A stretch of DNA of 32,000 nt from Candidatus Saccharimonadota bacterium (lineage in GTDB: Bacteria > Bacillota_I > Bacilli_A > Mycoplasmatales > Hepatoplasmataceae), in NCBI RefSeq assembly GCF_000582535.1, contig NZ_CP006932.1, positions 300,001-332,000 of the forward strand, given 5' to 3'. This document shows positions 1-22,939 of the stretch, in pieces (position 1 is the first letter of the stretch; the number at the start of each line of letters is the position of its first letter). The notes beneath the pieces are model-generated. The model ran no database searches. It saw nothing but the letters and a program-made list of their open reading frames with translations, and was not told the DNA's origin. The position numbers were made by a program, and so were the translations under genes.

Positions 1-2079
1 GTTGGACCAGGAAGAGGATCTGCTGCTGGTTCAATTGTTGCTTTTCTTTTAAATATTACATTAGCTGATCCAATTAAATTAAATCTTTATTTTGAAAGAT
101 TTTTAAATCCTGATCGAATTTCTTTTCCTGATATCGATATCGATATTGAAGATGAAAGAAGAGAAGAATTATTTCTTTATTTAAGAAATAAATATCATAA
201 AGATCATTTTGCACAAATTATAACTTTTCAATCTTTAAAAGCAAAAATGTCCCTAAAAGATGTTTTTCGTTTTTTAAAAATTTCTCCTTCTGAAGCAAAT
301 AGAGTAACAAAAATTTTAGATGATCGAATTAGTTTACAAGAATCATATAAAAAAAATAAAAATTTTAAATACTTGATCGAAGAAAATATCAATTTTGCAA
401 AAGGATATCAAATTGCAAAGGAAATCGAAGGACTTCCTAGACAATTTTCAACACATGCTGCAGGAATTGTAATTTCTTATCAAAAAATTGATAATTTAGT
501 TCCCATTCAAAAAGGTTATAGTAATCAATATAATCAAACACAATATTCAATGAATTATCTTGAAGAAAATCAATTATTAAAAATTGATCTTTTAGGATTA
601 AGAAATCTTACCTTTCTTAAAAAAATTATTAATTTAATAAAGAATACAGAAAACAAAGAAATTAATTTACAAAAGATAGATTATAAAGATCAAAAAGTTT
701 TTAAATTATTAATGCAAGGAAAAACTTTAGGTATTTTTCAACTTGAATCCCCAGGAATGAGTGATGTATTAATGAAAATCAAACCAACAGAATTTGAAGA
801 CATTGTTGCCACAATTTCTCTTTTTCGTCCTGGTCCGATTAAGCAAATTGATCACTATATAAAAAGAAAAAATCAACAAGAAAAAATTTCTTATCTTATT
901 CCTCAATTAGAACCTATTCTTAAAAAAACATATGGAATTATTATCTACCAAGAACAAATAATGGAAATAGCACAAAAAATTTCTAAATTTACACTTGCAA
1001 AAGCAGATTTATTAAGAAAAGCAATTTCAAAGAAAAATAGCGAAGAACTTAATTTATTAAAACATGATTTTATTGATGGTGCTATTAATAATAATTATTC
1101 AAAAGAAATTGCAATTAAAATTTACGATTTAATATTTGAGTTTGCTCTTTATGGTTTTAATCGTTCACATGCTGTTTCTTATTCTTTTATTACATATTGA
1201 TTAGCATATCTTAAAACTTACTATCCACAAGAATTTATTGTCTGTTTATTAAATCAATCAATTGGAAATGATAATAAAACAATCCAATACATTGAAGAAG
1301 CTCAATATTTTAAAATTAAAGTAAAATATCCTGATATAAACGCAACAAATTACAATTATTTTTTAAAAGATGATCAAATTTTTCTTGCATTAGAAGTTAT
1401 TAATGGTTTAGGAAAGCAAACAATAAATGAATTAACAAAAGAAAGAAATAATGGAAAATATCTTGATTTTATAGATTTTGTTGTTCGTATGCAAAAAATT
1501 AAATTATCAATTAAGCAACTTGAATTTTTAATTAAAGGAGGAGCATTAGATTCTTTTTTACTTACAAGAAATACAATGCTTAATAATCTAAAGATAATTT
1601 CTGAATATGCAAAACTTGTTTTATTAAAAGATGGTGATAATTATAAAATTGATTATTCAATAGTTGATGAAAAACCAAAATTAAAAGAATACGAAAAAGA
1701 TAATTATCAACAATTTGAAAAGGAAGCATTAGGATTTTTATTGGAAGCTAATGATTTTATTAAATATCAAAATAAATTATCAAAAAAACAAAGTAAAGAT
1801 TTACTTTTGATAAAAGAATTAAATCTAATTCAAGATCAAGATATAAAAGTTTTTGGAATTATAAATTCCATACGTAAAATTAAGACAAAAAATAATCAAG
1901 AAATGGCTTTTTTAGAGATTAAAGATCAATCGGAAAAAATCTCAATTACCATTTGACCAAGAAAATATCAAGAGCTAGAACAAAAATTAAAAATAGGAAT
2001 AGGAATTATTATTCGTGGTAAGATAGATTTAAGAAGAAATAAAACAATTATTCTTGATCAAGCTGAAATAATTGTATAG
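1..2079 (+). CDS. dnaE: DNA polymerase III alpha subunit (DnaE), C-terminal 692 aa; 5' end lies outside the window
   Basis: Frame 1 is open from base 1 (VGPGRGSAAGSIVAFLL..FPDIDIDIE..) and runs through in-frame TGA codons at 1198-1200 and 1954-1956 to TAG at 2077-2079. It carries typical DnaE motifs: STHAAGIVIS, FRPGP, IYQEQIM, NRSHAVSYS followed by W-LAYLKTYYPQEF. Confidence 0.9.
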
Positions 2080-2109: not shown

Positions 2110-3195
2110 ATGCAACAACTTTATATTAAAACAGTTACTATTCATTATTTGGGACCTTGAATAGATAATCATTTTCGTTTTAAAAAAAACAATTTAATTT
2201 TTGGAATAACCGAAGAAGAAGGTAATTTAGATTTAATTGATATCTTACGAGCAATTAAAGATATTCGTAAATTTCATAAAATAGATTTAAAATATCTTCA
2301 TCAAGATCTTAAAAAAAATATTGATTTTAATTACCATAAGTTTTTATTAAAAATAACTTATTTTAATTCAAAAAAAGAAACATATATCAAGATAAACAAA
2401 AATTTAAAAGTAGATTATAAAGAAAGTGTTAATTTTAATTTAATTAGTAGAGTATATATTAAATTTATTGAAAAAGAAGAAGAAATTGATCAAATTTTAA
2501 AAGATTTAGAAACAAGAAAAGAAAGAATTAATTTTATTAAGAACCGAATAATTGTTTTCTTAAAAGTTGAAAATTTATTAAAAGAATCCAAAATTGAAAA
2601 ATTATTGGATTTTTCTTATAAATTTTCTGGACAAACTTTTTTTTCTACAATATCTCCTAAAGTTATTGTTCATGCAATGAATAAATTTGATACAAGATTA
2701 CTTGATGTATTTTATATGGTAGATCATGTTGAAAAAAATTTAAAACCAAATTTATTGCAACAATTAGCAGAGTATACAGGAGAAAAAATTAGAAAAAAGA
2801 TTCTTTTTGTAGAAGGGATAAGTGATCGTTTAATTTTAGAAGCAATTGCAAAAAGAAATAAAATTAAAGATTTAGTAATTATTGATACAGGAGGAATAGC
2901 AAATATTAATTTTGAAGCAATTGCAAAATTAAATAATTTTTTAAATGCAAAAGCTTTGATTGATTATGATAATGAAAAAACAAGAATTTCTAATAGATTA
3001 ATTCATGTTCTTAAAAGAAGAGCGATCGAATGATATCTTGATCAAAATATTTTACATAAAAATAATCTTAATGATTTTAAAATGTCCTCACATAATAAAA
3101 TCTTGATGGCAGAAAATTTCAAAAATACTTATTTTAAAAGCAAAAATTATAAACAATTAGAATTTGAAGTTTTAAATTTATATAATTCTTTTTAG
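2110..3195 (+). CDS. OLD-family (ABC-ATPase plus TOPRIM) nuclease-like protein with a degenerate ATPase, 361 aa
   Basis: ATG at 2110 follows a GAGGA ribosome-binding site; TGA codons are read through (2158, 3031); stop is TAG at 3193-3195. The C-terminus has a TOPRIM pattern: ILFVEGISDRLILEAI, IIDTGG, IDYDNEK (E...DxD). The N-terminus resembles an ABC/OLD ATPase start (IKTVTIHYLGPW..NLIFG), but the Walker A site reads ITEEEGNL. A signature-like FSGQ and a Walker-B-like FYMVDHVEKNLKP are present, with His in place of the catalytic Glu. Confidence 0.6.
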
Positions 3196-3230: not shown

Positions 3231-5246
3231 ATGGAAACAGAAATAAAAGCAACAAAGAAAAGAATTTCTTTTGATATTTTAAAATTTCGTTTATTTAAAT
3301 TAATTATCGGAATTATTATTCTAATAATTTTTCTTTGAACAGAGATTTTAATGATTTTTAATTCTGATTCAAATTTACTTCCAGATTTATTTGTAAATAT
3401 TTGATGACAATTTTCTCTTTCTACAATAATTCTTATTTTAATAAGTTACGAATATTTAATAAATTCAATTAGAGATGCTTTTAAAAAAACAATTTCAGAT
3501 GATTTATTAGTTACAATTTCTGTTTTTACTTCTTATATTTTTTCAATAATTGCAATAGGAATAAATTTTACAGATTTAAAAGCAAATAATTGGCTTATTA
3601 CAAATTTTAATAATGGTGATTCTTTATATCTTTTGTTTGCAGCTTTTGTCGAAGTATCTGTAATTATTTATATTGGAAGAATAATTGAATTTTACGTTAC
3701 AGAAAAAACAGTAAATGAAATTACTGCAATTAATGATTTATTTGTAGAAGAAGCAATTATCTTAAAAAACAAAAAAGAACAAAAAATCGCAACAAAAGAT
3801 TTAAAAGAAAATGATATTATAATTTGTTATCCTGGAGAAGTAATTCCAGTAGATGGAATTATTTTAAAAGGAGAAGCTTTAATAAATGAAGCTTCATTTA
3901 CAGGTGAATCAAAATTAGTTAAAAAAATAAGAAATAGTGATGTTTACGGTGGAACAATTACAGATCAATATTTAAAAATAAAAGTTAAATATAAATTGCA
4001 AGATTCTCTTATTAGTAAAATTCACCAAGGAATATTAAAAGCAAAAGAAGCAAAATCTGATTATCAAAAAATAGCTGATAAAGTTGTTATATTTATGATT
4101 CCTACTATTTTAATATTAGGATTTATAGCACTTACACTTTGATCAATCTTTGCTGGATGAGAAAAAGGATTATTAGTAATGGTTACTGTTTTTGTTACAG
4201 CTTGTCCTTGTTCTTTTGCAATGATTACCCCTCTTTCAATTCTTGTAGCAAATGGTGTTGCTTTAAAGCAAGAAATTATCTTTAATTCGAAACGTCCCTT
4301 TGAGAAAAAACAAATTATAAATGCAATTGCTTTTGATAAAACAGGAACAATTACAACAGGTAAATTAGCAATTAAAAAAACTAATTTAAATAAAGAGAAT
4401 TTAAAATTAGTTTATTCAATTGAATTATATTCAAAACATCCAATTGCAACATCAATAATTGAAAATTATAAAAATTTATTCAAAGATAATTTTAATTTAA
4501 AAATTAAAACTATCGTAGGTGATGGATTAGAAGCAAAATATAATAATAAAACTTATTATTTAGGTTCTTTGGAATTTGCAAAAAAAATTTTAAACAAAAA
4601 TAATAATAAAAAAAATTTTATTAAAAGTGATGAAATAGTTATCTATTTATTTACAAAAGAAAAAATAATTGGTTATATTGAACTTGAAGATGAAATTAGA
4701 AAAGATTCATATCAAGTAATAAATTCCTTAAAAGCAAAAAATATTGAGATTTTTATGATTACAGGTGATCATAAAAATGTTGCTTTAAAAATTGCAAAAA
4801 AAGTTGGAATTAAATCCGAAAATGTCTTTTATCAAACTCTACCTTCTGAAAAAGCTTCAATTATTGAAAAATTAAAAAATCAAAATTACAGTGTTGGTTT
4901 TGTCGGTGATGGAATAAATGATGCAATTGCTCTTGAAACAAGTGATTTGGGAATATCTCTTGGTTCAGGTTCTGCTCTTGCTTTACAATCAAGCGATATT
5001 ACAATTAGAAATGATGATTTAAATCTTGTTGATCAAGCATTAAATATTTCGCAAAAAACATTAAAAACAATTTATATTGGTCTTATTGTTGCTAGTATAT
5101 ATAATATAATTTTAATCCCTTTAGCTTTAGGAGGAATATTAGTTCCTTCAATTGCTGCAATTGCAATGGCTATAAATGATACATTAGCAGTTATTATTGC
5201 AGCTAGTTTAAAAAGATTAAATTTTAAAAAAAATAAGAAAAATTAA
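3231..5246 (+). CDS. Heavy-metal-translocating P-type ATPase (P1B class), 671 aa, with no N-terminal metal-binding domain
   Basis: One frame-3 reading frame joins the 3633.. and 4179.. ORFs through TGA codons. Motifs: FTGES (actuator), TM CPC (TACPCSF), DKTGTIT phosphorylation site, ITGDH, GDGINDA, and YN..P in the following TM helix. Confidence 0.9.
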
Positions 5247-5310
5247 TTATTAAAAAAATATTTTTTTTGCTTTAAAAATATGTATAATAATATCGAATTA
5301 TCTGTTAGCT

Positions 5311-5346
5311 AGTTAAAAAATTCATGAATACCATACAACTCAAAAC
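5311..5346 (+). repeat. Solitary degenerate copy of the CRISPR repeat, abutting the tracrRNA anti-repeat with no spacer
   Basis: AGTTAAAAAATTCATGAATACCATACAACTCAAAAC versus the array repeat GGGTTAAACAACTCATGAATACCAACTAACCAAAAC. Same orientation and same 36-nt length, a shared TCATGAATACCA core and a CAAAAC end, roughly 70 percent identity with one offsetting indel pair. Confidence 0.7.
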
Positions 5347-5500
5347 ATTTTAAACAACTCATGAATACCAACTAATCAAGATAATGGTTTAAAATAAAAC
5401 AATTTTTTTGTTTTATGGAATATCTAAGGGTACACAGGTAACCCTATTATATAATCCTCCTGTAATCAAAGCCTACTTTTTAAAGTAGGCTTTTTATTTT
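5347..5500 (+). ncRNA. tracrRNA: Predicted tracrRNA: anti-repeat 5350-5382, internal hairpins, intrinsic terminator at the 3' end
   Basis: Bases 5350-5382 (TTAAACAACTCATGAATACCAACTAATCAAGAT) match 33 nt of the plus-strand array repeat with 3 transition differences. Each difference would give a G-U wobble against a minus-strand crRNA repeat (GUUUUGGUUAGUUGG...). Downstream are hairpins ATAAAACAA/TTGTTTTAT and AGGGT/ACCCT, then GCCTAC/GTAGGC followed by TTTTTATTTT. A TGTATAAT box lies upstream at 5281-5288. Exact 5' and 3' ends are not determinable from sequence. Confidence 0.75.
5468..5500 (+). terminator. Rho-independent terminator closing the tracrRNA
   Basis: AAAGCCTACTTT / AAAGTAGGCTTT inverted repeat followed by the T-run TTTTTATTTT. 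Confidence 0.7.
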
Positions 5501-5730
5501 ATTAAAATACAAATAAAATTAAAAATTAATATATATTTACTATTTTTTGTATAAAAATATAAAATGTAATATATTTTTTAGAAATTAAAAGGCAATTTTT
5601 ATGAAAAAAGAACATTTTAAAATAAAAACTAATATATTAAATGATATTTTTAATAGTAAAATAGTAAATAAAATCGAAAATATTTTAAATTAATAAAAAA
5701 TAAACTGAAAATGATTATATAAGTAAATTT

Positions 5731-6816
5731 TTAATAAATATTATCAAGAAATTTTAATTTTTTAAATTCCTTATTAATTCCTTTTATTTCATTTAATCGA
5801 AAAAATAAAATATCTCTTAATTTTTCATTTTCACTTTTAAAACTATATGGTCCAAGATATTCCTTTTTTTCAAGATCTAAATCTAACAATAAATAACTTA
5901 ATTTATCTTTAATAAAATTTTCTTCAATTTTTTGATAATCTTTTTTTTCAGCTACCATTTTTAATTCTTCAATTTTTTGATTAAATTGATCTGATGTTTT
6001 AATTTGTTCTTTTTCAAAAATATAATCTGAAAGAAAATAATTTTTTAATAAAAATTCTTTATTTAAATAAAATCTTTCCAATTTATTTTTGTTTAAAAAT
6101 AATATTTCTTCGATCGATATTTTAAGATTACGAATAATAAGAGGATTTCTTGTAGTTAATAATACAAAATTATTTTCTTTCAATTTATTAATTAAAGTTG
6201 CAAATTCTTGCAATTTTTTTCCATTAAATGATGAATCTATACAATCAAAAATAAAGATTTTATTTTTTGTATTACTATCAATTAATAATTTAAGATATAG
6301 CATTAATTGTTCTGAACGAGAAAGTCTTTTTTCATCAATTTCATTTTGTTCTTGATCATAAATTGTCAATTTAAATAAAAGATTAATTAAATCAAAATCA
6401 TTTTTGAAATTAAAAATAGGTTCAATATAATAATCATTAATTTTTGAGTTAATAATATTTTTTATTTTATTTAAAATTAATTTTATTTCTTTTTCTTCTT
6501 GAATTTTTCTAATAAGATCAATATTATTTTCTTCTAAAAAATAAATTAGATTGTTAGTAAGAAAGCGAAAGAGATAAGATTTCTTTTGCAAATTTAATTC
6601 TTTTTTTAATTCTCATTCCTCATTTAATATTAAATAATCTCTTGTATCTTCATATTGAACATCGGAGAAAATATGATAAGTTTTTCTTTTTAAAAGCAAT
6701 TCAAAATTATTAACAAATATTGTTTTTCCACTATTATTTTCACCGAATATTAATAATATATTATTTTCACTTTTCACTCTTTGATTATTATAAAATTGAT
6801 TTAATATTATTTCCAT
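5731..6816 (-). CDS. csn2: Csn2-position protein: ABC-like P-loop NTPase, 361 aa (probable divergent Csn2)
   Basis: ORFs 6613-6816 and 5731-6591 are in the same frame and are joined by TGA (6613-6615) read as Trp. The ATG at 6816 lies 2 nt after the cas2 stop. Motifs: Walker A GENNSGKT, signature-like LSRSEQ, Walker-B-like IFIFDCID, and TTRNP. Assignment to Csn2 rests on its position after cas1-cas2, not on recognised sequence similarity. Confidence 0.5.
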
Positions 6817-6818
6817 TT

Positions 6819-7127
6819 TTAGATAATTAAAAAATCTTCATCATTTGTATAAGATTCTTGTAAACTCTTTCTTCCTTTTAATATTTCTATTTCGCTATAT
6901 TGTTTATTTGTTACAATAATTATTCTAATATCTCCTTTTTCTGGAAGGATTTGTTTAATTCTAATTTTTGTTCTTTTTACTCAATCATGATTATAGCAAG
7001 GTTTCATATATACAGATTCTTGAATCATAATAAAACCTAATTTAATTAAATTATTTCGAAATTTATTAAAATTTCTTTGATCATTTTTTGTAATTGTTGG
7101 TAAATCATAAAAAAGAAGAATATTCAT
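6819..7127 (-). CDS. cas2: CRISPR-associated endoribonuclease Cas2, 102 aa
   Basis: MNILLFYDLPTITKNDQRNFNKFRNNLIKLGFIMIQESVYMK... shows the typical Cas2 N-terminal beta-strand with Asp and the QxSVY motif. One internal TGA is present. The start lies 4 nt after the cas1 stop. Confidence 0.85.
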
Positions 7128-7131
7128 CTGT

Positions 7132-8109
7132 CTAAAACGGGATTCCCTGTAGTTCATTTTTTTCTTTTTCTCGCAAATTTAAGGGAAGATGAAGTTCAGG
7201 AAGCAATAAATTTTCTTTTTTATTTTCTAAAAAAGAAATAATTGATTTAACCATAATATCTATTGCATGCCTTACCTTTGTTACTTTTCCGTCAATTATA
7301 ACTTCAAGTGATAAAACCTTTATTAATCTTATTCTTATAATTAATTCAAGATGATCATTTTGAATTAATTCATTATTTTCATAAACTATTCAATCTATTA
7401 AAGGTCTAAAAGGTTCTATTAAATCATAAGTAAGATTAAAATAATTAAGTTGATCTTTATGTTTAAATCCAATTGCAGGGTTTAAACCAAATTTTACAAT
7501 AGAAGAAGAAATTCTACTTGCTAGAATCTTATATCCATAATTTAAAGCACCATTTATAGGATTATCATCTCTTCTTACAAAATAATGATATATTCCAAAT
7601 AATTTTTTGAAATAAAATTTAGCAGCAACAGCTTCCATATTCTTAGTATCACCTTGATTTACTTTTTTAAGATATATCTTCATTTTTTCAAGATCATCTT
7701 TTGATAAATTTATTTTATTTTTTAAATCTGTAAGTAAATTTTTTTGATTTATTATTTTCTGGACAATAATTTGCTTTCAAACTCTCTGTTTATCTCTTAA
7801 TGATAATTCTAATTGCATATTAAAATTCTTAAGAGGATTATGATGTCCGGAAAGATTAAGAATTAAAGAAGAAGGATCGTGCGATCTATTATTTATAATT
7901 ATTGGAATATTTTCTTTATTTAATTCAATAATTGCTGGAATTGAAATATTTGTTCTTGTATTATCAATTATTATTGTATCTATATCTTTTATGTAGAATT
8001 TTAATTTTTCTTGATCTCCAGTTACAATTAATGAGTTATTTTCGACCCGCATATTTTGGTCATTTTTTATATATATTGTTCTCCAACTCATATAATCAAA
8101 GATTAACAT
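7132..8109 (-). CDS. cas1: CRISPR-associated integrase Cas1 (type II), 325 aa; the true start may be the second ATG at 8091 (MSWRT...)
   Basis: ORFs 7777-8109 and 7390-7683 plus the tail down to TAG at 7132-7134 form one frame through TGA codons. Motifs match type II Cas1: [59 protein letters not shown]. Confidence 0.9.
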
Positions 8110-8288: not shown

Positions 8289-9920
<1,632 letters not shown>

Positions 9921-11999
9921 TTATTTTTTTTTATCTTGCTTTTCTTCTTTTTTATTTTCCTTTTTTTGTAATTTGCTTAATTTATCCATTTCTTTTATTT
10001 TTTCACTAATTATTTTTTTATTATTATTATATTTATTTTTGGTTTCTTTCAAATCTTTTTGATTTTCTTTTGTTTTTTTTATTTTTTTGATATTATCTTT
10101 TATTTCAAATTGTTCAACTTTTAATTTTGTTTCTTCTTTTAAAAGTTTTTCAAATTTTTTGTAATGTTTTTGTTTTTCTTCTATAAATGTATTTCTATAT
10201 TTATATCTCTCAATATTTTCTGTATTTTTTTCTAGATTTTCTTCTACATCTTTTAAATAATCATTTCAACCTTCTGTTGATAATTTTGCAAATCAATGTG
10301 ATTTTTTAGAAAAAAGAATTGTAAGAAAAAAAGTTCAAATAACAGTTCCGATCATAATTAAAATATAAACTATTCATGCCGCTCATTCTGCATTTAAAGA
10401 ACTATTATTTACATTTAAAAATCCTAAAATTCCTCCCATTCCAATTCCATTTGCAGTTATTCCGAATGCGACATCAAACATTGAAGCAAGGGCAGATCCA
10501 AGCATTGCTGCTACGAAAGGAAACATAAATCTAAGATTTACTCCATACATTGCTGGTTCTGTTACTCCAAGTCAACATGTAATAGCAGCGGCATTTCCCT
10601 GCTCCCGCATTTTGGCATCTTTTCGTAACATATAAACAACAGCAAATACAGCAGCTCCTTGAGCCATATTTGATAATGCAAGCATTGGAAAAATAAAATT
10701 TGCATTTGTTGTTGTTAATTGCAACATTACAGCATTAAGTGTTTGATGTAATCCTGTAATAACAAGTACAGGATAAAGTAATCCGAATAATGGTCCAAAG
10801 AAATATTTTGCAATAGGTTGCGTAAATGCTCATTCAAAACTAACGGATATTGCTCATCCAATAATTGCTCCAATTGGACCAATTATTCCAAGTGCAACAA
10901 TTTGTATTACAAGAATTGTAATAAAGGGTGGTCAAACATATCTTACAGAGGGAATTGTATGTCTTTCAATTAAATCATAAAATCAAACTCCAAATCAACC
11001 AACAAGTAGTGCTGGAATTATTTGACCAATATATGAAATTGCAAGAGGTCAATATGATGTAAAATAAGAAGCATCTAGGGCATCGATCGCTTGAAAAATT
11101 GTTTTTACTTCATATGAACTAGTTAATCCTGCTTGATTTAAAATATTAATCATTTCTTCTTTATTGGGATCATTTGGATCAATTCCAGTAAAATCTACAA
11201 GATTATGAATATTATTAAAAGCAAGAATTTGATCAGGAGAATATACTCCTCCTGTAACTATGTAATATTCTGTACCATTTGGAATTGCATCTAAATTAAT
11301 ATAAATATTATGAGATTGATCATAATAAAAAGATTGTATATATATATTTCCTAAGGCATCTGAAACACTATACATATTAACTAATGTTCCTGGAGCAATT
11401 AACATTATTCCAATTGTTATTCCTAAGGCTCCTGGTTTATTTGCTCTTTGAAACATTGATCAAACAACATGAACAGGTAAATATCAAAATACAGCTTGTG
11501 CTGGTAATCATAATCAATCATCTAAATTCTTAGCAAAATTACTATTATTAATTGCTGATCCACCCTCACCAGTTCAATCAAGTTCAAGTAAATTTCGAAA
11601 TGCAAGAATTAATCCTCCAGCTACAATAACAGGAATTAAAGGAATAAAAATTTCTGAAAATACTGACATTACTTTTTGAAATTTATTTGCTTGTTTTTTT
11701 GCTGCAATTTTTGTTTCTTCTTTTGTTGCATTTGTTATTTTTGCATATTTTAAAAATATTTTATAAAAATCACCAACATCGGTTCCAATTATTATTTGAA
11801 ATTGTCCAGATTGTGTAAAAGTTCCTTTTACAGAATCTAATTTATCAATTGCTTTAATATCGACTATTGTTGGATCCTTTAAAACAAGTCGTAATCTTGT
11901 TTGGCAATGAGAAGCCGATATTATATTATTTTCCCCTAATAATAAAACTATCTTTTGTGCATCAATATCATATTGTTTTTTCTTTTGATTTGATGGCAT
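9921..11999 (-). CDS. PTS EIIBC component (glucose/sucrose/trehalose family), 692 aa, with a Lys/Glu-rich C-terminal extension
   Basis: The N-terminal EIIB has the phospho-Cys motif ASHCQTRLRL. A polytopic EIIC follows, read through many TGA codons, then a low-complexity tail of about 110 aa (..KKFEKLLKEETKLKVEQFEIKDNIKKIKKTKENQKDLKE..KKEEKQDKKKNK). No EIIA domain is present. Confidence 0.8.
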
Positions 12000-12248
12000 A
12001 ATATTATTCTATAAATTCCCTATTTTTATTTTTTTTACACTATATAATTAAATATTATTAAATTTTTAAAAATAGAAACTTATTTTTTTAAAAATAAATA
12101 ATTTAAAAAAATAAGAAATTAAAAAGTTTAATAATAATATTATTATGTAGTTTATTATTTATATTTTTTTAAAAAGAAAAAAATTTATTTAATTTTAGAA
12201 ATTTAAAAGTAATATAATTTATATGAAAAATTAGGAGGATTAAAAGTA

Positions 12249-12977
12249 ATGGATTTAAATTTAGGAGGAATATTCCTATCAGAAATGTTAGGAACTTTCT
12301 TTTTGATATTAATAGGTTGTGGGGTAAACGCTAGTGTTAATCTTAAAAAAACCTATTCAAATAATTCTGGTTGAATTGTAATCAGTTTTGGATGAGGAAT
12401 GGGAGTTATGATTGGAGCTGCCGTTGCCTTTTATTCTGGGGGACATTTAAACCCTGCTGTTACATTAGCAATGTGAGCGGAAAGTACAATAGATACTGGA
12501 CAAGCTTTTGTATATTTTGCAGGAGAATTAGTTGGGGCATTTCTTGGTGCTTTATTAGTTGCTTTTTTATTTTGAGATCACTTCAAAGAAACAAAAGATC
12601 CAAAAGCAGTTGCTGGTACTTTTCACACTACACCAGCAATTCCAAGATGATATAGAAATCTTGCAACAGAAATGTTTGCAACATCTGCATTAGTTTTACC
12701 ATTGTTAGCACTTACTGAAGCAGGATGAGATACATTAATACTAGGACCTTTATTTGCTGGTTTATTAGTTTTGGGAATCGGATTAACTCTTGGAGGATTA
12801 ACTGGATATGCAATTAATCCAGCAAGAGACTTGATGCCAAGATTAGTTCATCAAATTGTTAAAATCCCAAATAAAGGAACAAGTAATTGACAATATTCAT
12901 GAGTTCCAATTATAGGACCACTTATGGGATCAATGCTTGCTGTAGCTTTTTATGAATTAATCTTAGTAGCAATTTAA
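12249..12977 (+). CDS. glpF: Glycerol uptake facilitator (aquaglyceroporin), 242 aa
   Basis: AGGAGGA ribosome-binding site 10 nt upstream. Two NPA boxes are present (GGHLNPAVT and YAINPARD). The standard-code ORF call here (12371-12655) is in the wrong frame. Confidence 0.9.
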
Positions 12978-13010
12978 TAAAAGTAAGAAAAGAAAAAGGA
13001 TAGATTTAGA

Positions 13011-14507
13011 ATGAACAAAAAATATATATTAGCATTAGATTCAGGAACAACATCAGCAAGAGCTGTTTTGTTTGATAAAAAAGCAAATGTTATGTCAATC
13101 GGGCAAAATGAATTTACACAATATTTTCCTGAACCGGGTTGAGTTGAACATGATGCAAATGAAATATATGCTAATCAAGTTGGAGTTGTAATTCAAGCAA
13201 TACAAAAAAATCACACAAAATTAAGTGAAATTGAAGCAATTGGAATTACAAATCAAAGAGAAACAGTTGTAATTTGAGATAAAAGAACAGGGATTCCTGT
13301 TCATCATGCAATTGTATGACAAGATAAAAGAACTGCGGATTATTGTGAAAAATTAGCAAATGATCCTAAAGTAATCAAAATAATTAAAGAAAAAACGGGT
13401 CTTGTATTAGACCCTTATTTTTCTGGAACAAAAATAAAATGATTACTAGATAATGTAAAAGGATTAAGAAATCGTGCTGAAAAAGGCGAAGTTTTAGCAG
13501 GAACAATTGATACTTGACTTATTTGAAAATTAACAAATGGTAAATCATTTGTTACTGATTATACAAATGCTTCAAGAACTTTATTATTTAATATTATTAA
13601 TTTAAAATGAGATCAAGAATTATTAAAATTATTTGATATTCCAGAAAAAATTTTACCAGAAGTTAAAAATTCTTCTGATAATTTTGGTACTACAGATATT
13701 GATGCTTTTAAAGGTATTCCAATATATTCATCTATAGGTGATCAACAATCATCTCTTTTTGGACATAGAAGTAAAATTGGAGAATTAAAAGGTACTTATG
13801 GAACAGGAGCATTTTTAATGTTAAATACTGGAGAAAAAGTTGTAAGATCAAAAAATGGATTACTTACAACAATTGCTTTAGGATTAAATGGAAAAGTAAC
13901 TTATGCTCTTGAGGGTTCAATTTATATTGCTGGAAATGCGCTTAAATGAATAAAAGATGAATTACATCTTATTCAAGAATATGAACAAATCGATTATTAC
14001 TTGAAAGATAATTATGATACAAAAGGAGTTACTGTTGTTCCTTATTTTGTTGGAGTAGGATCTCCTTATTGAAATACAAAAGCAAGAGGATTAATTACTG
14101 GAATTACAAGAGGAACAAATCGTGGTGATATTATAAGAGCAACTGCAGCTTCAATTGCTTTTCAAACATATGATATTTTTAAAGCTTTTCAAGAAGATTA
14201 CAATTCAAAAATTATAAAAATGTCTATTGATGGTGGTGTTTCAAAAACACAAAATTTAATGCAATTACAATCAAACATTTTAGAAGCAAAATTATATAAT
14301 CCAGAATCATCAGAAATTACTGCACTTGGTGCAGCTTTTCTTGCTGGATTAAAAGCAAAATTCTGAAAAGATCAAGCAGAAATTGATAAATTAATTAAAT
14401 TTAAAAAAATTTATAAACCAAATGCCAAAGTAAGTGAAAGTGAAAAAATTATCAAAAATTGAAAAGAATCAGTAAGATTAGCATTAGAATGAAATAAAAC
14501 AAAATAA
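13011..14507 (+). CDS. glpK: Glycerol kinase, 498 aa
   Basis: [62 protein letters not shown] and IDGG.. are classic FGGY/GlpK motifs. There are many in-frame TGA codons. Confidence 0.95.
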
Positions 14508-14517
14508 AGGAAAAATA

Positions 14518-15642
14518 ATGAGTGATACAAAATCATATGATGTAGCAATTATTGGTGGTGGAGTAATAGGTCTTACCATTGCAAAAGAATTTTTAGAAAA
14601 AAATATTAAGAATATTTGTCTTTTAGAAAAAAATCGCGATGTAATGTTAGAAACTTCCTCACATAATAGTGGAGTCATTCATAGTGGGTTTGATGCAACG
14701 CCCGGAACGTTAAAAGCAAAATTTAATGTAGAAGGCCGTCATCTTTTTGAGCAAAGATATTTAAAAAAAGATGCAAAATTTCATTGAGAAAATATTAATT
14801 CTTATATCTTGGCATTTGATGATGAAGATATTAAAGAATTAAATTTACTGTATGAGCAAGGAATTAAAAATGGTTTAAATCCTAAAAGTATGCAAATAAT
14901 TGATAATAAAGAAATTCTCAAAGTAAATCCGTATCTTAATAAAAAGATAATTAAAGCTTTATTAGTAAATACTTCTAAAATTATTGATGCACATCAATTT
15001 GGGAATTTTATTTTTGAAGAAGCTAAAAAATTAGGACTTAAGTATCATTTAAATTTTAAAGTAAATGATATTAAAAAAGAAAAAAATGAATGAGTTCTAA
15101 AATCTGAAAAAGACCAAATTATAAAGGCAAAATATATTATTAATGCAAGCGGAGTTTGATCAGAAGAAATTGCAAGACTTGTCGAAAAAAATCCTTTATT
15201 TAAAATTAAAACCAGAAGAGGACAATATCTTATTTTAGATCATGATCAGAGAAAATATACAACTTTTGATGTATTTTTTTTAACTCCATCTAAACATGGA
15301 AAAGGAGTAATAATCGCTCCTTTGTTAGATGGAAGAGTTCTTGTTGGTCCTAATGCAGAAGATAACATTCCAAAAAATGATATTCAAATAGTAACAGAAA
15401 AAGGTCTTAAACATGTAAGGAAAATAGGAAAGAAAATAAATCCTAATATTGATCTTGGTCGTGTTGTTTCTGTACTTGCTGGTTCTAGATCAATAAATGA
15501 ATTAACAAATGATTATTATATTGAAAAAAGTAAAGAAGTAGATAATTTCTTTCATGTAGCAGGAATTCAATCTCCAGGATTATCAAGTTCTCCTGCAATT
15601 GCTAGGTATGTATATAAAAGATACACAGAAGTAAAAAAGTAA
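14518..15642 (+). CDS. glpO: FAD-dependent glycerol-3-phosphate oxidase/dehydrogenase (mycoplasma GlpO/GlpD type), 374 aa
   Basis: ORFs 14518.., 14809.. and 15322.. share one frame. The N-terminal Rossmann FAD motif is YDVAIIGGGVIGLTIA. Its position after glpF-glpK and its short length match the mollicute GlpO type. Confidence 0.85.
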
Positions 15643-15662
15643 AAGAGTAAAAGAGTAAAAAA

Positions 15663-15689
15663 ATATAGGGAAATTCCTATATTTTTTTT
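15663..15689 (+). terminator. Rho-independent terminator after glpO
   Basis: ATATAGG-GAAATT-CCTATAT hairpin followed by a T7 run. Confidence 0.7.
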
Positions 15690-15776
15690 ATTTTAATAAT
15701 TTTGTAAAATTTACATATATAAATAAGAATAAAATAATAAATTAACTAATCTATAATAATGATAATAAAGGAAAAA

Positions 15777-16553
15777 ATGGAAAATAATAAAATTGAATTT
15801 TTTACATGAATTAGAAAAATTGAATTTATTAAATTAAAAAAACATTATGAGAATTACTATTCAAATATTATAAATGTTGATAATAATGAATTTTTATTAT
15901 TAAAAAGATATCTTAATGAAAATTTATTTACTGATTATTCTAAAGAAGATTTTGAAAAAATAAAAGAAAAATTTAAAAAAGACGAAATTTTTGATCCAAT
16001 AAAAAATATAAATAAAAATATCAATAAACAAAAAGAAACTTTCAAGCAAAAAATTTATGATGTTTTAATTAATATAGAAGATCATTTAAATCAATTTTCG
16101 AAAAAAAATTATAATAAATTAAGAAAGCATAAAATAATTTATTTTATTATTGCTCATGCAATAAATACAAATAAAAAGTATGCACAATGAAAAGAAGAAT
16201 ATGATATTTTTGCTTCTTTTATATCAAATAAAAAAAATTATGAAAAGATGACTTGATGTGCTTTTGAAAATGGACCAATTTTAAATAGTATCTATAATCC
16301 ATCACCAAATGAAGATAATGATTTATTTATTTTATATCAAAATGAAAAACAATTAATTGTTTTTGAAATGGCTTATTTTTTCTTAAAAAATTTTTCAACA
16401 ATCGAACTTATTGAAGAAAGCCATAAGACAAAACCTTGAATAGACAATTTTGAAAGATACAGTTATTACAAAAAAATTAAAAATAATGAAATAATTGAAT
16501 ATTTTAAAAATAATAAACCTTTTTTTATTAAATTAATAAATGGAAATAATTAA
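15777..16553 (+). CDS. Panacea/SocA (DUF4065) domain protein, 258 aa, candidate antitoxin
   Basis: The C-terminal half has the Panacea pattern: KIIYFIIAHAI.., W-CAFENGPILNSIY, ..TIELIEESHKTKPW. The N-terminal ~110 aa has no motif I recognise. Three in-frame TGA codons are present. Confidence 0.6.
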
Positions 16554-16908
16554 AATTAAATTAAATAATTTTATAAACAAGTATTTAGAAATTATTTTTA
16601 CTATTGTATGATTTCTTTTTCTTTTAATTTTAGTTATTTTAATAATTTATATGCAAATAGATACTAAAGATTTTTTTTCATATTTAATTTCATTTACAAT
16701 TGCTTGATTTGCAATATATCTTACAATAAAAATTGGTAAAAATAGCCAGAAAACATTAGATAATATAAACGAAACAGTAATAGAAATAAAAAATTTGAAT
16801 CTAGAAAAAGATCAAATAAATATTAAAAAAGAAAATCAAGTAATAAAACAAAATAGAATAAATAAAATCCAAAAGGAAAATGATGAATATGAAAATAAAT
16901 TAAAATAA
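16540..16908 (+). CDS. Small two-TM membrane protein with a charged coiled-coil tail, 122 aa, candidate toxin/effector
   Basis: The ATG at 16540 overlaps the upstream stop by 14 nt, which suggests translational coupling. There are two hydrophobic helices (IIFTIVWFLFLLILVILIIY and FFSYLISFTIAWFAIYLTI), then a tail ..EKDQINIKKENQVIKQNRINKIQKENDEYENKLK. Confidence 0.5.
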
Positions 16909-16951: not shown

Positions 16952-19900
16952 TTATTCTATTTTTCCTAATCTTGTAATATTTACAAGTTTTAAATCTTGT
17001 GCTTTAGATATTGAAATTCTTAATTTAATATTAAACATTTCTTTATATTTTTTTGGATTTGTATGTTGTGTTAAATTAGAAATTGGTGCACTAAATCTTT
17101 TTTCTAATGAATCTAAAGATTTATATGTATAAATAATTTCATCATTTGATAATTTAAATTGTGCATTTTTAAATAAAATTAAATTTATTTTTTCTTTTTG
17201 TTTTGCAATTTCAGCTATTTGATTACGATAAATTGGAATTAGTTTTTTATTTTGATCATATGTATATCCAATATACTTTGAAATATCTCAAAAATTACCT
17301 TTTTTATCTTTAATAAATGAATTTTTTAATTTTCCTGTTTTTTGATCTATTGCTTCTTTTTTAGAACTAGGATTTTGCTTTGCAAGTAAAGTTCCTCTTA
17401 TTCTTTTGTCTATTTTATAAGATACATAAGGATAATCTTTAATGTTTTTATTATTCAAGTTTGCTCATTCTGTTGCTTCAATAGTATCCAAAAATGCTGG
17501 AATTTTTTTATATTTAATTTCTTTTATATATTCGTTTGTATTTGAATCAAATGTTGTTGCTGGATATTTTTGATTTATTTGCTTTAATCTTACAGGAATT
17601 AAATTGTTAATTTTACTAGGAAGATTTTCAATTAAAGGACTTATTAAATTTAAAATATTTTGATCGGTAGTAAAATCTATTCTTTCTAATCTTTGATTAG
17701 TTTTAATTTTTTGATCAATTAAATTTATTAAATAATTAAATACTTGATTTAATTTATTGTTTAATTCTTTTGTACCATAAAAATAGACAAATCCACGATC
17801 TTTAAATCGATTATCAATTATTCTTTTTTGTTCAAATAATTTTTCTTTAATATTAAATGAATCTTTTTTATTTACATAATAGTTATAAAAATTAATAATT
17901 CTAACTATCAATTGATAAAACTCAATATGTTGCTCAGAAATCATATTAGAAAGAATTATTGCATCTACAGCATGATGAAAAGGAGAGATATCACGAGGTT
18001 TATTAATATCTCCTCATAAGCTTCCATATTTATAATTAGAAGGATTTAATCATAATCTTCTAAAATATGAAGTAATTCCTCCTTGAATTTGTAATATTTT
18101 GGGAGACTTAATATTTTCTTTTCTTTCTTTTTTTGCAAATTCTAATTTTAAATAATCAGTAATATATTTTGTAATATATCTTGTGTCATTAATATTTCTA
18201 GATTCAAATCCTGTTTCCTTTGATCGATCTAAATTCTCCATAAATAAATATGCTAATTTTACATTACTATTTATACTTTTTTCAATTTTATTTTTTCAAT
18301 TATTTAATTGTTTATTAGTAAAATTTTGTATTTTAAAAAAATCAAGTGGTGTTTTGTTACTTTTAAGAGCATTATTTTTTCTTGAAGTAACTATCTTATT
18401 ATTTTTAGTATCATCATTTACTAAAGAATAAGGAGCAATATGGTCAACTTGGTATTCATTATTTTTGTCTTCAATAAAGTTTTTTAAATAAATTTTTTCT
18501 TTAAAATCAACATCATATAAATCATATGCAAAATTTTCTTTTTTTGAAATTTGATCTAATTGTTGATCTTTTCAAATTAAATATTTATTAATGTTTTTAG
18601 AAGTTGGAATTAAATTATGTTCTTTTAATTTATTTTCAGATTCTTCTCTTATTTTTTGATTTTTATCTTGATTACTTCTTATTTTATTTCTTAATGTTTT
18701 TTCTGCATAAAGATCTTTTGCTACTTCAATAATTAATCCATCAAAATTATGTATTTTTAATAAATCTCTTACTACTAATCTAACTTGATTTATTGCTCGA
18801 AAAACTACAGAATTTTTTTGCATATCTTGATCTTTAATTGGAGAAAATAATTTTATTTCCTTTTCTTTTAATTTTTCTAATTTTTCTTCTGTATTTTTTT
18901 CTCTTATTTTATTTTGATATTCAAAAATTATCTCTCCTGTATCTAATTGATTTTTAAGAGCAGATAAGATAAATTTGCTTGATGTAGATAAAGTTTTATT
19001 TCCTTTTCCTATTCATTTGTTATTTTTTCTAATTCAATTATATCCATCATTTTGATCATTAAAAAATGAATCTATTTTTATCAATTCATTTTTTAATTTT
19101 TCTGGTGTTTTATTTTTAAATAAAACATTTGCAATTTTATTTATTTTACTATCTCTAATTGTATTTAAAAAATTTAGATCTATTTTAAGATTTTTTAAAA
19201 TGAATTCTTTATTTTCATTATTTTGTGCAAACGAATGTAAAAATAAATTACTATTAGCAAAACTAATTCCATCTAATTTAGGTAAATTTAAATTATGTTT
19301 TGAAAATATTTCTGTAATTATTTTACGATCAAATTTTAAATTTTTAAAATAATTATCAAATATTTCTCTTGTAATTATTTTTATTTTTTCTGAATTAATT
19401 TGTTTTTCATTTTTTAGTTTTGAAAATATCTTTCCTGTTTCATTTAGAATAAACGAAATATCATTTTCAATTGAAAAGCAAGATAATCTTTTTTGATCTT
19501 GAAAAAATTCACAATTTCCTAAATTTTCAAAAAATTGTTTGTAATAAAATTGTTTAGAATCTTTATTTAATTTTTCTTTTCAAATTTTTTTTACTTCTGG
19601 ATCTTTGGGTCCTGGACCATCTTCAAAATCTCGTTGTCTAAATATAATTTTTTTTAAATCTTCTTTTATATCACTTAATTTATCATTATATTCGATCTGT
19701 TTATTTAATAATGCATCAAATTCATTTTCATAATCTTCACGATTAAATAAAATTTGATTATCATTATATTTCTTAATTAATGTATTTTTTAATATGTTAA
19801 TTAATTCTTTTTCTGATTCATTTTTATGATCTATATTATATTTTTTCAATAAATTTTGTAAATTAATTATATTTATTTCTTTTTTGTTTTTGTCTAGAAA

Positions 19901-20539
19901 AATTTGTTCATTAAATTTACTTTCATTAAAAACTCTACTACGATAGTTAAATTTACTTAGATCTTTTGGATTAAAATTAAAAAAAGAATCTTCTGTAATA
20001 GCTTTAATTGGATATTTATATTTTTTTATTAATTCTTTACTTTTTTCGATGCTTTTTCTTGCATCTTTATTTTCATTTAAATTTGGAATAAGAAAACGAT
20101 TACTATATCCTCTTCTTTTTGCAATATTAATTAAAGCAATTAATAATTCTAAATTTGTTAATTTTTCTTCTAATCCTTTTTTTCTTAAAATAATTGAATT
20201 AAATTTATCATCTTTAAAATATTTTTTTCCTTCTTTATTAATTTTTAAAATGTGATTTTGGTAATCTTCTTTTTTTAATAATTTATGATTATAAAAAGTT
20301 TTTTTAAGATCATTTATTCTTATTTTTTTACGAGAATTTAATCTTCTTCCAGATCTAAATTGTCTTCTTTCGGAAGTTTTTGTATCTAAAGATTTACTAT
20401 CTTCGGGTGCATCTCATAATCTAACACCAAAATCTAATATATTTCAATTGTTTTTTTGATTATTATATTCTGAGATAGCCCATCCTAATGATGTAACTCC
20501 AATATCTAATGCTAAATATTTCTTATTTTCTAATTGCAT
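16952..20539 (-). CDS. cas9: Cas9 (type II effector nuclease), 1195 aa, with all catalytic motifs intact
   Basis: A single minus-strand frame links ORFs 19580-19849, 18572-18823, 18050-18241 and 17465-17944 through TGA=Trp. Motifs: RuvC-I YLALDIGVTSLGWAI, Arg-rich bridge helix SERRQFRSGRRLNSRKKIR, RuvC-II IIEVAKDL, HNH YQVDHIAPYS..NNKIVTSRKNNALKSNKTP, RuvC-III FHHAVDAIILS. AAAGGA ribosome-binding site before the ATG. Confidence 0.93.
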
Positions 20540-20593: not shown

Positions 20594-22939
20594 TGATTAA
20601 ACAACTCATGAATACCAACTAACCAAAACAACTTCATTATCATTATCTTTGTAAGGAAAGGGTTAAACAACTCATGAATACCAACTAACCAAAACCATCT
20701 GATCAATTATATGTAGTTATTATTGGGGTTAAACAACTCATGAATACCAACTAACCAAAACTAATCTTAATGCAATATTAAATATTATTTCGGGTTAAAC
20801 AACTCATGAATACCAACTAACCAAAACAACGTAAATTTAAGCTTAATTGAACTATTAGGGTTAAACAACTCATGAATACCAACTAACCAAAACATTGAAA
20901 AGGTCCATCGCAAATGTTAATATGGGTTAAACAACTCATGAATACCAACTAACCAAAACAACGTAAATTTAAGCTTAATTGAACTATTAGGGTTAAACAA
21001 CTCATGAATACCAACTAACCAAAACAGCAGGTTTAGGAAAAACAACTACTGCAAAGGGTTAAACAACTCATGAATACCAACTAACCAAAACATAATATGG
21101 TATAAAAAACTATCAAAAAATGGGTTAAACAACTCATGAATACCAACTAACCAAAACTATGTGGTTTTTTTAGTTCCTCACTACCTTGGGTTAAACAACT
21201 CATGAATACCAACTAACCAAAACTATTAAAATTTGCTAAATATTCGTCTGGTGGGGTTAAACAACTCATGAATACCAACTAACCAAAACAAAGTAAGAGG
21301 CATTTATACCAATGTAAATGGGTTAAACAACTCATGAATACCAACTAACCAAAACTTTCATATACATTTGATTACATCAGATATAGGGTTAAACAACTCA
21401 TGAATACCAACTAACCAAAACCCGTATAATTTCATTGGTCATAATCTTAAAGGGTTAAACAACTCATGAATACCAACTAACCAAAACTAGGTGGGTAAAG
21501 AAAAAGGAAAAAAAAAGGGTTAAACAACTCATGAATACCAACTAACCAAAACTGTCCCTTAATATTAAACGGTCATTTTTAAGGGTTAAACAACTCATGA
21601 ATACCAACTAACCAAAACTAATTTTGCTTTTGAACCTTATATTAAAACGGGTTAAACAACTCATGAATACCAACTAACCAAAACACATTGGAATAAATTC
21701 CTCTTATTTTTAATGGGTTAAACAACTCATGAATACCAACTAACCAAAACAAAACTGAAGTAATCATAATGGTGTCTGCTGGGTTAAACAACTCATGAAT
21801 ACCAACTAACCAAAACTATAGCAATGTAAATCCACTAATATTTTTAGGGTTAAACAACTCATGAATACCAACTAACCAAAACAACGTAGAATATGAGAAT
21901 TGCAGTTGATTTGGGTTAAACAACTCATGAATACCAACTAACCAAAACAATTAGTTTTTTCTTATATAGTTATATTATGGGTTAAACAACTCATGAATAC
22001 CAACTAACCAAAACTAAATGTTGTTAAAAACAACAAAAAAATAAGGGTTAAACAACTCATGAATACCAACTAACCAAAACATCGCACAGATGGACCCGAA
22101 TACCATTAAAGGGTTAAACAACTCATGAATACCAACTAACCAAAACATCGCACAGATGGACCCGAATACCATTAAAGGGTTAAACAACTCATGAATACCA
22201 ACTAACCAAAACCCCATAAATATTCAATTAACATTTTAATCTGGGTTAAACAACTCATGAATACCAACTAACCAAAACACTTTTGCATATAATGACTTAA
22301 TTAAAATAGGGTTAAACAACTCATGAATACCAACTAACCAAAACTAATTACTTCGCAACTTAATTTTTAAATAAGGGTTAAACAACTCATGAATACCAAC
22401 TAACCAAAACACTTTAATGGTTAATGCATTCATACCACTAGGGTTAAACAACTCATGAATACCAACTAACCAAAACCCTTAGACCATCTACTTTCGCTTA
22501 TAACGAGGGTTAAACAACTCATGAATACCAACTAACCAAAACACAGAAATATTATATTTATACGTTCCTTACGGGTTAAACAACTCATGAATACCAACTA
22601 ACCAAAACAACGTTAGAGGATTTTACTCAAATGTTAATGGGTTAAACAACTCATGAATACCAACTAACCAAAACACATTTACACTAACTGATGATTATAC
22701 TAATTGGGTTAAACAACTCATGAATACCAACTAACCAAAACATAGAGTTTATGTTTAACTGAGAAGACAATGGGTTAAACAACTCATGAATACCAACTAA
22801 CCAAAACATACCGCCTCAATTAGATTGATTGGTATATGGGTTAAACAACTCATGAATACCAACTAACCAAAACCTTCTTTTAACAGAATCAAATATTTTT
22901 TTTGGGTTAAACAACTCATGAATACCAACTAACCAAAAC
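20594..22939 (-). CRISPR. CRISPR array: 36 repeats of 36 nt and 35 spacers (29-31 nt, mostly 30)
   Basis: The plus-strand repeat is GGGTTAAACAACTCATGAATACCAACTAACCAAAAC with a 66-bp period. Its reverse complement starts with GTTTTGG, as in type II repeats. The repeat nearest cas9 (20594-20629) is degenerate (TGA in place of GGG). Minus-strand transcription is inferred from the tracrRNA orientation and the position of the degenerate terminal repeat. Confidence 0.97.

Follow-up and report, generated by a model that had tools for sequence, protein, structure and literature searches.

The subject of this analysis is a stretch of 32,000 nt (the window) from the genome of Ca. Hepatoplasma crinochetorum Av, a gut symbiont of isopods (CP006932, ~300,001-332,000), with a G+C content of 22.5% and with TGA read as tryptophan; open reading frames (ORFs) were predicted with table 4 and domains were assigned by Pfam. 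[quoted passage not shown] This tracrRNA and its bulge-free duplex with the repeat of the CRISPR RNA (crRNA) are already known; what is new is a conserved double anti-repeat with a leader box, in which a second unit (u1) lies upstream of the working anti-repeat (u2). The best explanation of the whole, for which belief and doubt are about evenly balanced, is that of a two-unit tracrRNA in which selection for base pairing to the crRNA repeat maintains u1. The parts of the gene, together with the other components of the system in the window, are the following.

5283-5500, plus strand: tracrRNA gene, the feature under study
5283-5288, plus strand: -10 box TATAAT, the likely tracrRNA promoter, at a position conserved upstream of both units in orthologs
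5297-5303, plus strand: leader box ATTATCT, complementary to AGATAAT at 5379-5385
5311-5346, plus strand: u1, second unit in anti-repeat sense, imperfect
5347-5382, plus strand: u2, working anti-repeat (33-nt core at 5350-5382), joined directly to the Cas9-binding scaffold
5383-5416, plus strand: AA junction, then a hairpin in the nexus position (stem-loop 5394-5416), predicted in every ortholog
5427-5463, plus strand: conserved scaffold core, with the hairpin AGGGTAC-ACAG-GTAACCCT at 5427-5445
5468-5500, plus strand: intrinsic terminator, an 11-bp stem (5468-5493) and a T-rich tail (one found, 0.0 expected from shuffles)
5731-6816, minus strand: fourth gene, in the csn2 position, encoding a 361-aa ABC/SMC-like protein (weak SMC_N Pfam match only)
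6819-7157, minus strand: cas2 (Pfam CRISPR_Cas2)
7132-8109, minus strand: cas1 (Pfam Cas_Cas1)
16952-20539, minus strand: cas9, 1195 aa (Pfam HNH, RuvC_III and bridge-helix matches)
20594-22939, minus strand (crRNA sense): CRISPR array, in which 35 spacers separate 36 repeats of 36 nt

The repeat of the array reads GTTTTGGTTAGTTGGTATTCATGAGTTGTTTAACCC in the crRNA sense, on the minus strand, and TTAAACAACTCATGAATACCAACTAACCAAAAC on the plus strand. The core of u2 at 5350-5382, TTAAACAACTCATGAATACCAACTAATCAAGAT, is identical to the plus-strand repeat at 30 of 33 positions, and a recount against the repeat agrees with a preliminary description of this DNA in that the three differences (C>T, A>G and C>T) each turn a Watson-Crick pair with the minus-strand repeat into a G-U pair; the uninterrupted, bulge-free duplex of 33 bp foreseen there is also what in silico folding gives, with -46.7 kcal/mol against -10.5 +/- 2.8 for shuffled repeats (RNAduplex). 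The anti-repeat is, therefore, complementary to the repeat of its own locus. The same description saw at this locus direct evidence of kinship between tracrRNA and repeat; the near-perfect complementarity is in itself no direct evidence of a recent descent, since selection for pairing would yield an equally close match; the derivation of anti-repeats from repeats has been proposed by Chylinski 2013 (PMC3737331) and Faure 2019.

Ortholog loci were gathered via the csn2-position protein and Cas9, and genomes were scanned with the scaffold motif AGGGTACNCAGGTAACCCT. A tracrRNA gene with the same scaffold was found in a 98% strain (L002, L003), in Ps (L013), in H. scabrum (L001, L011), in H. vulgare (L007, L012), in the metagenomic lineages L008 and L009 and in a metagenome-assembled genome of a Mycoplasmataceae member from the Snake Pit vent field (L019), whereas the related lineage L029/L031 has two units and a different scaffold. 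The scan of metagenomes of the Joint Genome Institute with the scaffold motif returned high-GC chance matches only; at the thresholds applied, no anti-repeat came up within 10 kb of cas9 in Ca. Tyloplasma litorale (L010), a lineage that is uninformative because its array runs off the locus. Once two or three unpaired bases at the 5' edge are set aside, u2 departs from a perfect anti-repeat solely by transitions that keep a G-U pair (3 of 3 changes in Av, 8 of 8 in H. scabrum, 4 of 4 in H. vulgare, 6 of 6 in L008 and 4 of 4 in L009), and in L031 it has one mismatch to its repeat; moreover, the change of U to C that separates the repeat of H. scabrum from that of Av is matched by a change of A to G in u2.

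The anti-repeat is followed by a structured 3' tail ending in the intrinsic terminator. The hairpin in the nexus position is predicted in every lineage, with wholly unrelated stem sequences (a nexus stem of 12+ bp is given by Ipoutcha 2019, PMC6882279), and a terminator hairpin of differing sequence is found in all orthologs; the 19-nt scaffold core is unchanged in seven lineages except at position N. The loop ACAGG of the scaffold hairpin (5434-5438) pairs with CCTGT (5459-5463), and the closing pair of this second stem, NCAGG:CCTGN, is A-T, T-A, C-G or G-C according to the lineage (seven lineages); the structure as named here has 97.5% of its cells paired, against 33-48% with the partners slid. 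The pairing of a loop with a downstream segment within 5427-5463 suggests a compact fold of the pseudoknot type, which may matter for guide design. Scaffold and terminator, conserved with compensatory changes in seven lineages, together with the presence of a degenerate repeat on the cas9 side of the array, bear out the earlier assignment of a plus-strand tracrRNA that pairs with a minus-strand crRNA. A scan of the whole window against Rfam, curated tracrRNA model included, gave no match at the tracrRNA region at E<=1, which is weak evidence because type II branches that are distant from one another do not share a conserved tracrRNA sequence.

The Av tracrRNA had in fact been predicted by Ipoutcha 2019 (PMC6882279, Table S4, Fig. 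S6), with a 33-bp stem, the entry 'bulge: No', a nexus and a terminator, and that molecule and the one encoded at 5283-5500 are the same; the missing bulge is remarked upon in that paper, where the system is classed as II-C-like without csn2. A search of its text and supplements found them silent on u1 and on the leader box, as well as on the conserved promoter and on any ortholog, and a literature search on tandem or second anti-repeats in type II systems found no relevant paper.

Aligned to the repeat, u1 agrees with it at 31 positions and departs from it by three single-base indels, two mismatches and one change that keeps a G-U pair; its predicted pairing spans the whole repeat, with -32.3 kcal/mol against -9.8 +/- 2.7 for shuffles (z = -8.3), and its last base abuts the first base of u2. 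The preliminary description was right to place a repeat-derived unit of 36 nt at 5311-5346; its figure of about 70 percent identity holds only with a shift of 1 nt (71-74% in a repeat search), the ungapped count in the register that it had used being 17 of 36. Nothing else repeat-like occurs in the 32-kb window outside the array.

The two-unit layout is present in at least seven Hepatoplasmataceae lineages, in which the identity of Cas9 to that of the window goes from 93% down to 33%, and always in the same order: a TATAAT-type box, a short leader, u1, a linker of 0 to ~18 nt, u2, the scaffold and the terminator. Its genomic setting varies: in Av, H. scabrum and L019, the tracrRNA gene comes after, and is convergent with, the gene in the csn2 position; in H. 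vulgare, L008, L009 and L029/L031, it lies upstream of cas9 and is divergent from it; in Ps, it stands beside the P-type ATPase gene, as in Av, and cas1, cas2 and csn2 are missing there. Ps, which Collingro 2015 reports to be without CRISPR-Cas, retains the whole tracrRNA gene with both u1 and u2 (L013 5270-5477). The module is not universal, since L030 has a single anti-repeat, 20 nt after the -10 box TATAAT, and is without a leader box. The alignment produced by MAFFT was unreliable in the u1-u2 region of L019, so that this lineage was handled by eye and with RNAduplex.

Throughout these lineages, u1 follows the repeat of its own genome: its duplex energy lies between -32 and -41 kcal/mol with the cognate repeat (z from -8 to -15) and between -4 and -29 with foreign repeats, the same pattern of own-repeat preference as that of u2. 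In H. vulgare, L008 and L009, u1 departs internally from a perfect anti-repeat by C>T and A>G only, changes that keep a G-U pair, and its duplex equals that of u2 in length and continuity; between H. vulgare and L009, u1 is identical except for the first few bases, the two Cas9s being 55% and the neighbouring hairpin regions 56% identical. Furthermore, u1 has fixed differences of its own that are common to orthologs, such as the G in AAATGTC of H. vulgare, L008 and L009, and this sharing makes frequent copying from u2 or from the array unlikely. Conservation over the whole family suggests a function rather than a leftover and, as judged from these comparisons, u1 is probably under selection within the family.

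Two accounts in which u1 is a remnant have to be considered at this point. In the preliminary description, u1 was offered as the relic of an array that once followed csn2 and later moved; this is rejected because the same ensemble of promoter, leader box and two units recurs upstream of cas9 with the array elsewhere (H. vulgare, L008, L009, L029/L031), and because u1 tracks the repeat of its own lineage rather than decaying, the 0-nt spacer between the units in Av being likewise at variance with a relic or a mini-array. More generally, u1 could be a functionless leftover, a fossil that goes back either to the duplication of an anti-repeat or to a mini-array of two repeats read antisense, with its similarity to the repeat kept by occasional gene conversion from u2 or from the array. 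It is generally accepted that anti-repeats descend from repeats, type II loci commonly have additional degenerate repeats nearby (Chylinski 2013, PMC3737331), the linker between the units varies from 0 to ~18 nt, and Av, Ps and H. scabrum differ from one another in the 3' third of u1, which is degenerate, all of which would fit such a fossil; however, u1 persists down to 33% Cas9 identity, where flanking non-coding DNA is saturated, the differences that its orthologs share speak against frequent conversion, and its position with respect to promoter and leader box is fixed in two genomic contexts, so that at least the version with an array after csn2 is excluded. We consider a functionless leftover to be quite unlikely.

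Extra anti-repeat-like sequences are known from other type II loci, such as Lactobacillus gasseri, with two separate anti-repeats, and L. coryniformis, with a degenerate terminal repeat (Chylinski 2013, PMC3737331), where they were discussed as evidence for the origin of anti-repeats from repeats; more than one such sequence per locus is what these cases have in common with Av. The Lactobacillus copies, however, are scattered in the locus and were read as relocation intermediates, whereas the units of Av abut within one putative transcription unit, and the pair is conserved family-wide. As described in Shmakov 2023, the small CRISPR-Cas-associated RNA (scaRNA) of Francisella novicida and standalone mini-arrays resemble u1 in being repeat-derived and outside the array of a type II locus; they differ from it in that they are in crRNA sense, pair with the tracrRNA and carry a guide, whereas u1 is in anti-repeat sense and would pair with the crRNA. 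The possibility that u1 is itself a scaRNA is thus ruled out by strand sense.

Separately, partial repeat pairs in crRNA sense lie outside the array in H. vulgare (L007 16773-16860 and 21271-21340) and in L008 (7374-7430 and ~13202); they consist of the first 24-26 nt of the repeat, some stand beside terminators, and they may represent scaRNA-like RNAs or else mini-arrays in decay. The window contains no counterpart to them.

As to transcription, TATAAT at 5283-5288 is the sole such hexamer in 5247-5349 (chance expectation 0.12 per 70 nt), and the box is present in every ortholog, with the variant TATAAC in Ps. The previous statement that the only -10-like box lies upstream of both units stands as far as TATAAT is concerned; a reading of the box as an extended -10 does not, because TG is directly adjacent to TATAAT and the canonical form is TGnTATAAT, and a weak TAnnnT (TACCAT, 5329-5334) is to be added within u1. 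Transcription would likely start near 5295. With one conserved promoter box upstream of both units, the primary transcript could carry two tandem anti-repeats, as had been envisaged, and u1 is probably transcribed together with the tracrRNA.

The alternative is that u1 acts as promoter DNA only and that the relevant tracrRNA starts just upstream of u2, from TATAAA inside the u1 of the H. vulgare group, 21 nt before u2, or, in Av, from the weak TACCAT. Streptococcus pyogenes has two tracrRNA promoters, a precedent for a start of this kind, and the 20-nt spacing from TATAAT to the anti-repeat in L030 is the same as that from the internal TATAAA to u2 in the H. vulgare group. Nevertheless, the internal motif is not conserved, being TACCAT in Av with no TAnnnT at that place in H. 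scabrum, and a conserved TATAAT followed by a leader box complementary to u2, both upstream of u1, would be hard to explain if that region were untranscribed; we regard a purely promoter-DNA role of u1 as very improbable.

The target of the leader box at 5379-5385 comprises the last four bases of u2 and the junction. The predicted leader:junction helix closes the minimum-energy fold in all eight of the two-unit tracrRNAs tested, and across six Hepatoplasma sequences it is 95% paired, with one pair that switches between U-A and C-G (AUUAUCU:AGAUAAU in one Hepatoplasma group, ACUAUCU:AGAUAGU in the other); its duplex energy is -6.7 to -8.9 kcal/mol, a value equalled by 0.6-6% of shuffles. The leader box was found in nine of nine two-unit genes and is absent from the sole single-unit gene, that of L030. 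In addition, the palindromic core of u1 (TTCATGAA in Av, TTTATAAA in H. vulgare) is able to pair with the core of u2 in Hepatoplasma, a helix that results automatically from the duplication of the palindromic repeat core.

These features recall the long tracrRNA form of S. pyogenes, tracr-L (Workman 2021), whose 5' extension, made from an upstream promoter, can fold back on the anti-repeat, as is predicted for the Av RNA; the leader box of Av, too, is a stretch of a few bases in crRNA sense, with predicted pairing to the anti-repeat's end. The extension of tracr-L consists of a repeat-like segment in crRNA sense and an 11-nt guide directed to the cas promoter, whereas u1, the bulk of the Av extension, is in anti-repeat sense. 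A fold-back of the tracr-L type is predicted in Av, where the 7-bp leader:junction helix and the helix between the cores of u1 and u2 are conserved and the energies modest. A search for a guide of the tracr-L type upstream of the leader box, where at most ~5 nt are available, found only chance 9-mers in coding regions; an autoregulatory guide like that of tracr-L was accordingly rejected, the 5' nucleotides being without a target in a cas promoter.

Could folding back in cis be all that u1 does? In such a self-locked RNA, leader box and u1 would fold back on u2 and never pair with crRNA, and the lock would shield the 5' end against exonucleases or keep the anti-repeat hidden until displacement or processing frees it. 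The fact that in every two-unit tracrRNA the leader box is complementary to the end of u2 and the junction, including one compensatory change, the pairing of the palindromic u1 core with the u2 core in Hepatoplasma, the mere 2 nt left unpaired at the inferred 5' end and the co-occurrence of leader box and u1 are all in its favour. What it leaves unexplained is the 3' half of u1, a loop in this fold, which has one and the same sequence throughout the H. vulgare group and is a perfect complement of the repeat's 5' end, as well as the capacity for full-length u1:repeat pairing in all lineages; moreover, the fold energies are weak, the u1:u2 core helix, an automatic product of copying a palindromic core twice, apparently does not exist in L019 and L031, as judged from their sequences, and a lock in cis as the sole role of u1 seems unlikely to us.

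A role of u1 in pairing in trans is favoured, possibly combined with an unlocking of the closed fold. In the two-unit tracrRNA thus conceived, a start near 5295 would give a primary RNA of ~205 nt bearing u1 and u2. As long as this RNA is free, u2 would be covered by the leader box and by the palindromic core of u1, both folded back onto it; this closed fold would leave the 3' half of u1 exposed, which may for that reason be the first contact with the pre-crRNA and open the RNA. On the pre-crRNA, u2 would sit on a repeat n (upstream) and u1 on the repeat n+1 (downstream), with the 30-nt spacer looped out between them; indeed, when a repeat-spacer-repeat fragment is cofolded with the long RNA, both units are predicted to be paired simultaneously. 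RNase III would then cleave both duplexes, and only the 3' part of u2 with the scaffold would be loaded into Cas9, leader and u1 being discarded. This specific mechanism of pairing with two repeats is put forward tentatively, at somewhat less than an even chance. Bolder, and in our opinion rather improbable, is the idea that the Hepatoplasmataceae have a distinct class of 'double anti-repeat' tracrRNAs, self-locked RNAs in which the exposed half of u1 would sense the pre-crRNA and unlock u2 for the neighbouring repeat.

Several points weigh against a u1 maintained for pairing in trans. A crRNA bound by u1 would be unable to load into Cas9, so that pairing in trans would be costly unless there were a regulatory or kinetic gain; the closed fold yields no more than modest energies, from -9 to -14.5 kcal/mol with z from -0.1 to -2.8; and the long form of the RNA, its transcription start and its processing by RNase III are all deduced from sequence. 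The lineages compared are few and related, and structures were counted on the sequences from which they derive. The test of G-U-keeping changes has low power for u1, because C>T is the commonest mutation in an AT-rich genome. Finally, in the crinochetorum/scabrum branch, the 3' third of u1 has indels and mismatches and varies among Av, Ps and H. scabrum, and identity within the branch is 74-76% for u1 and 81-92% for u2, that is, u1 is under weaker constraint; given this degenerate and variable 3' third, u1 may be decaying in the very branch to which the window belongs.

The remaining genes of the window surround or interrupt the system.

247-2079, plus strand: dnaE, C-terminal part (ORF call and Pfam)
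2110-3195, plus strand: Toprim-like gene (ORF call and Pfam)
3231-5246, plus strand: P-type ATPase (ORF call and Pfam)
8289-16908, both strands: treC, treB, glpF, glpK and glpO, and two unknown ORFs

The tracrRNA gene is encoded at the cas locus, convergent with cas1, cas2 and the gene in the csn2 position, and it is far from cas9 (11.5 kb) and from the array (15 kb) because the metabolic genes split the locus. The separating segment consists of ~8.8 kb of genes for trehalose (treB, treC) and glycerol (glpF, glpK, glpO) with the two unknown ORFs, leaving cas9 and the array in one half and cas1, cas2, csn2 and the tracrRNA gene in the other; the split, which was described previously (Leclercq 2014), is identical in H. 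scabrum. The Cas9 of the Av window is 93% identical to the H. crinochetorum Cas9. H. scabrum lacks the 230 nt at 5500-5730, which run from the tracrRNA terminator to the stop of the gene in the csn2 position and enclose a 30-codon ORF (5603-5695, plus strand).

With regard to the type II-A assignment, cas9, cas1 and cas2 are confirmed, and a fourth gene is kept after cas2, also in L019, L029, L030 and L031, but it matches ABC/SMC ATPases only. Its product (5731-6816, minus strand) bears an ABC/SMC-like signature, and its Walker A motif, GENNSGKT, is intact; searches of Pfam, NCBIfam and PDB sequences found no Csn2 match, only similarity to ABC/SMC ATPases. The gene has been named Csn2, by HHpred, in Kawato 2024, and csn2 was said to be absent by Leclercq 2014 and Ipoutcha 2019; in L029, L030 and L031 it is the last member of a contiguous operon, cas9-cas1-cas2-X.

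The array corresponds to the published Av coordinates 320,594-322,939. Its terminal repeat on the cas9 side (20594-20629) is degenerate at the 3' end, which places the array leader on the far side, from ~22940 onwards. Two spacers each occur twice (20828-20857 equals 20960-20989, and 22081-22110 equals 22147-22176); duplicate spacers of this array were also counted by Ipoutcha 2019. Within the family, the placement of the array varies widely: upstream of cas9, directly after cas9, or after csn2. Two large paralogous genes (23167-25821 and 26052-28028, plus strand) adjoin the array leader, each with ~7 RCC1-like repeats (YxWGxNxxGQLG) and hydrophobic N-terminal segments, an arrangement that is kept in H. 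scabrum and in the Tokyo strain.

As to its origin and regulation, the tracrRNA is the least understood part of Cas9 systems. For the compact Cas9 family of these AT-rich genomes, a guide-RNA scaffold is now defined, made up of a bulge-free 33-bp duplex and a conserved hairpin/pseudoknot core; even if u1 were inert, the locus would still show how long a duplicated anti-repeat persists. If the tracrRNA transcript holds a conserved second anti-repeat that coevolves with the repeat, crRNA maturation or the control of the tracrRNA would gain a new component, and a two-unit tracrRNA would be the natural counterpart of the long form known in S. pyogenes; for an uncultured, genome-reduced symbiont, the long and the short RNA are a concrete, testable pair. 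If the self-locked double anti-repeat were true, it would couple the activity of the tracrRNA to the presence of pre-crRNA, a logic undescribed for any Cas9 system.

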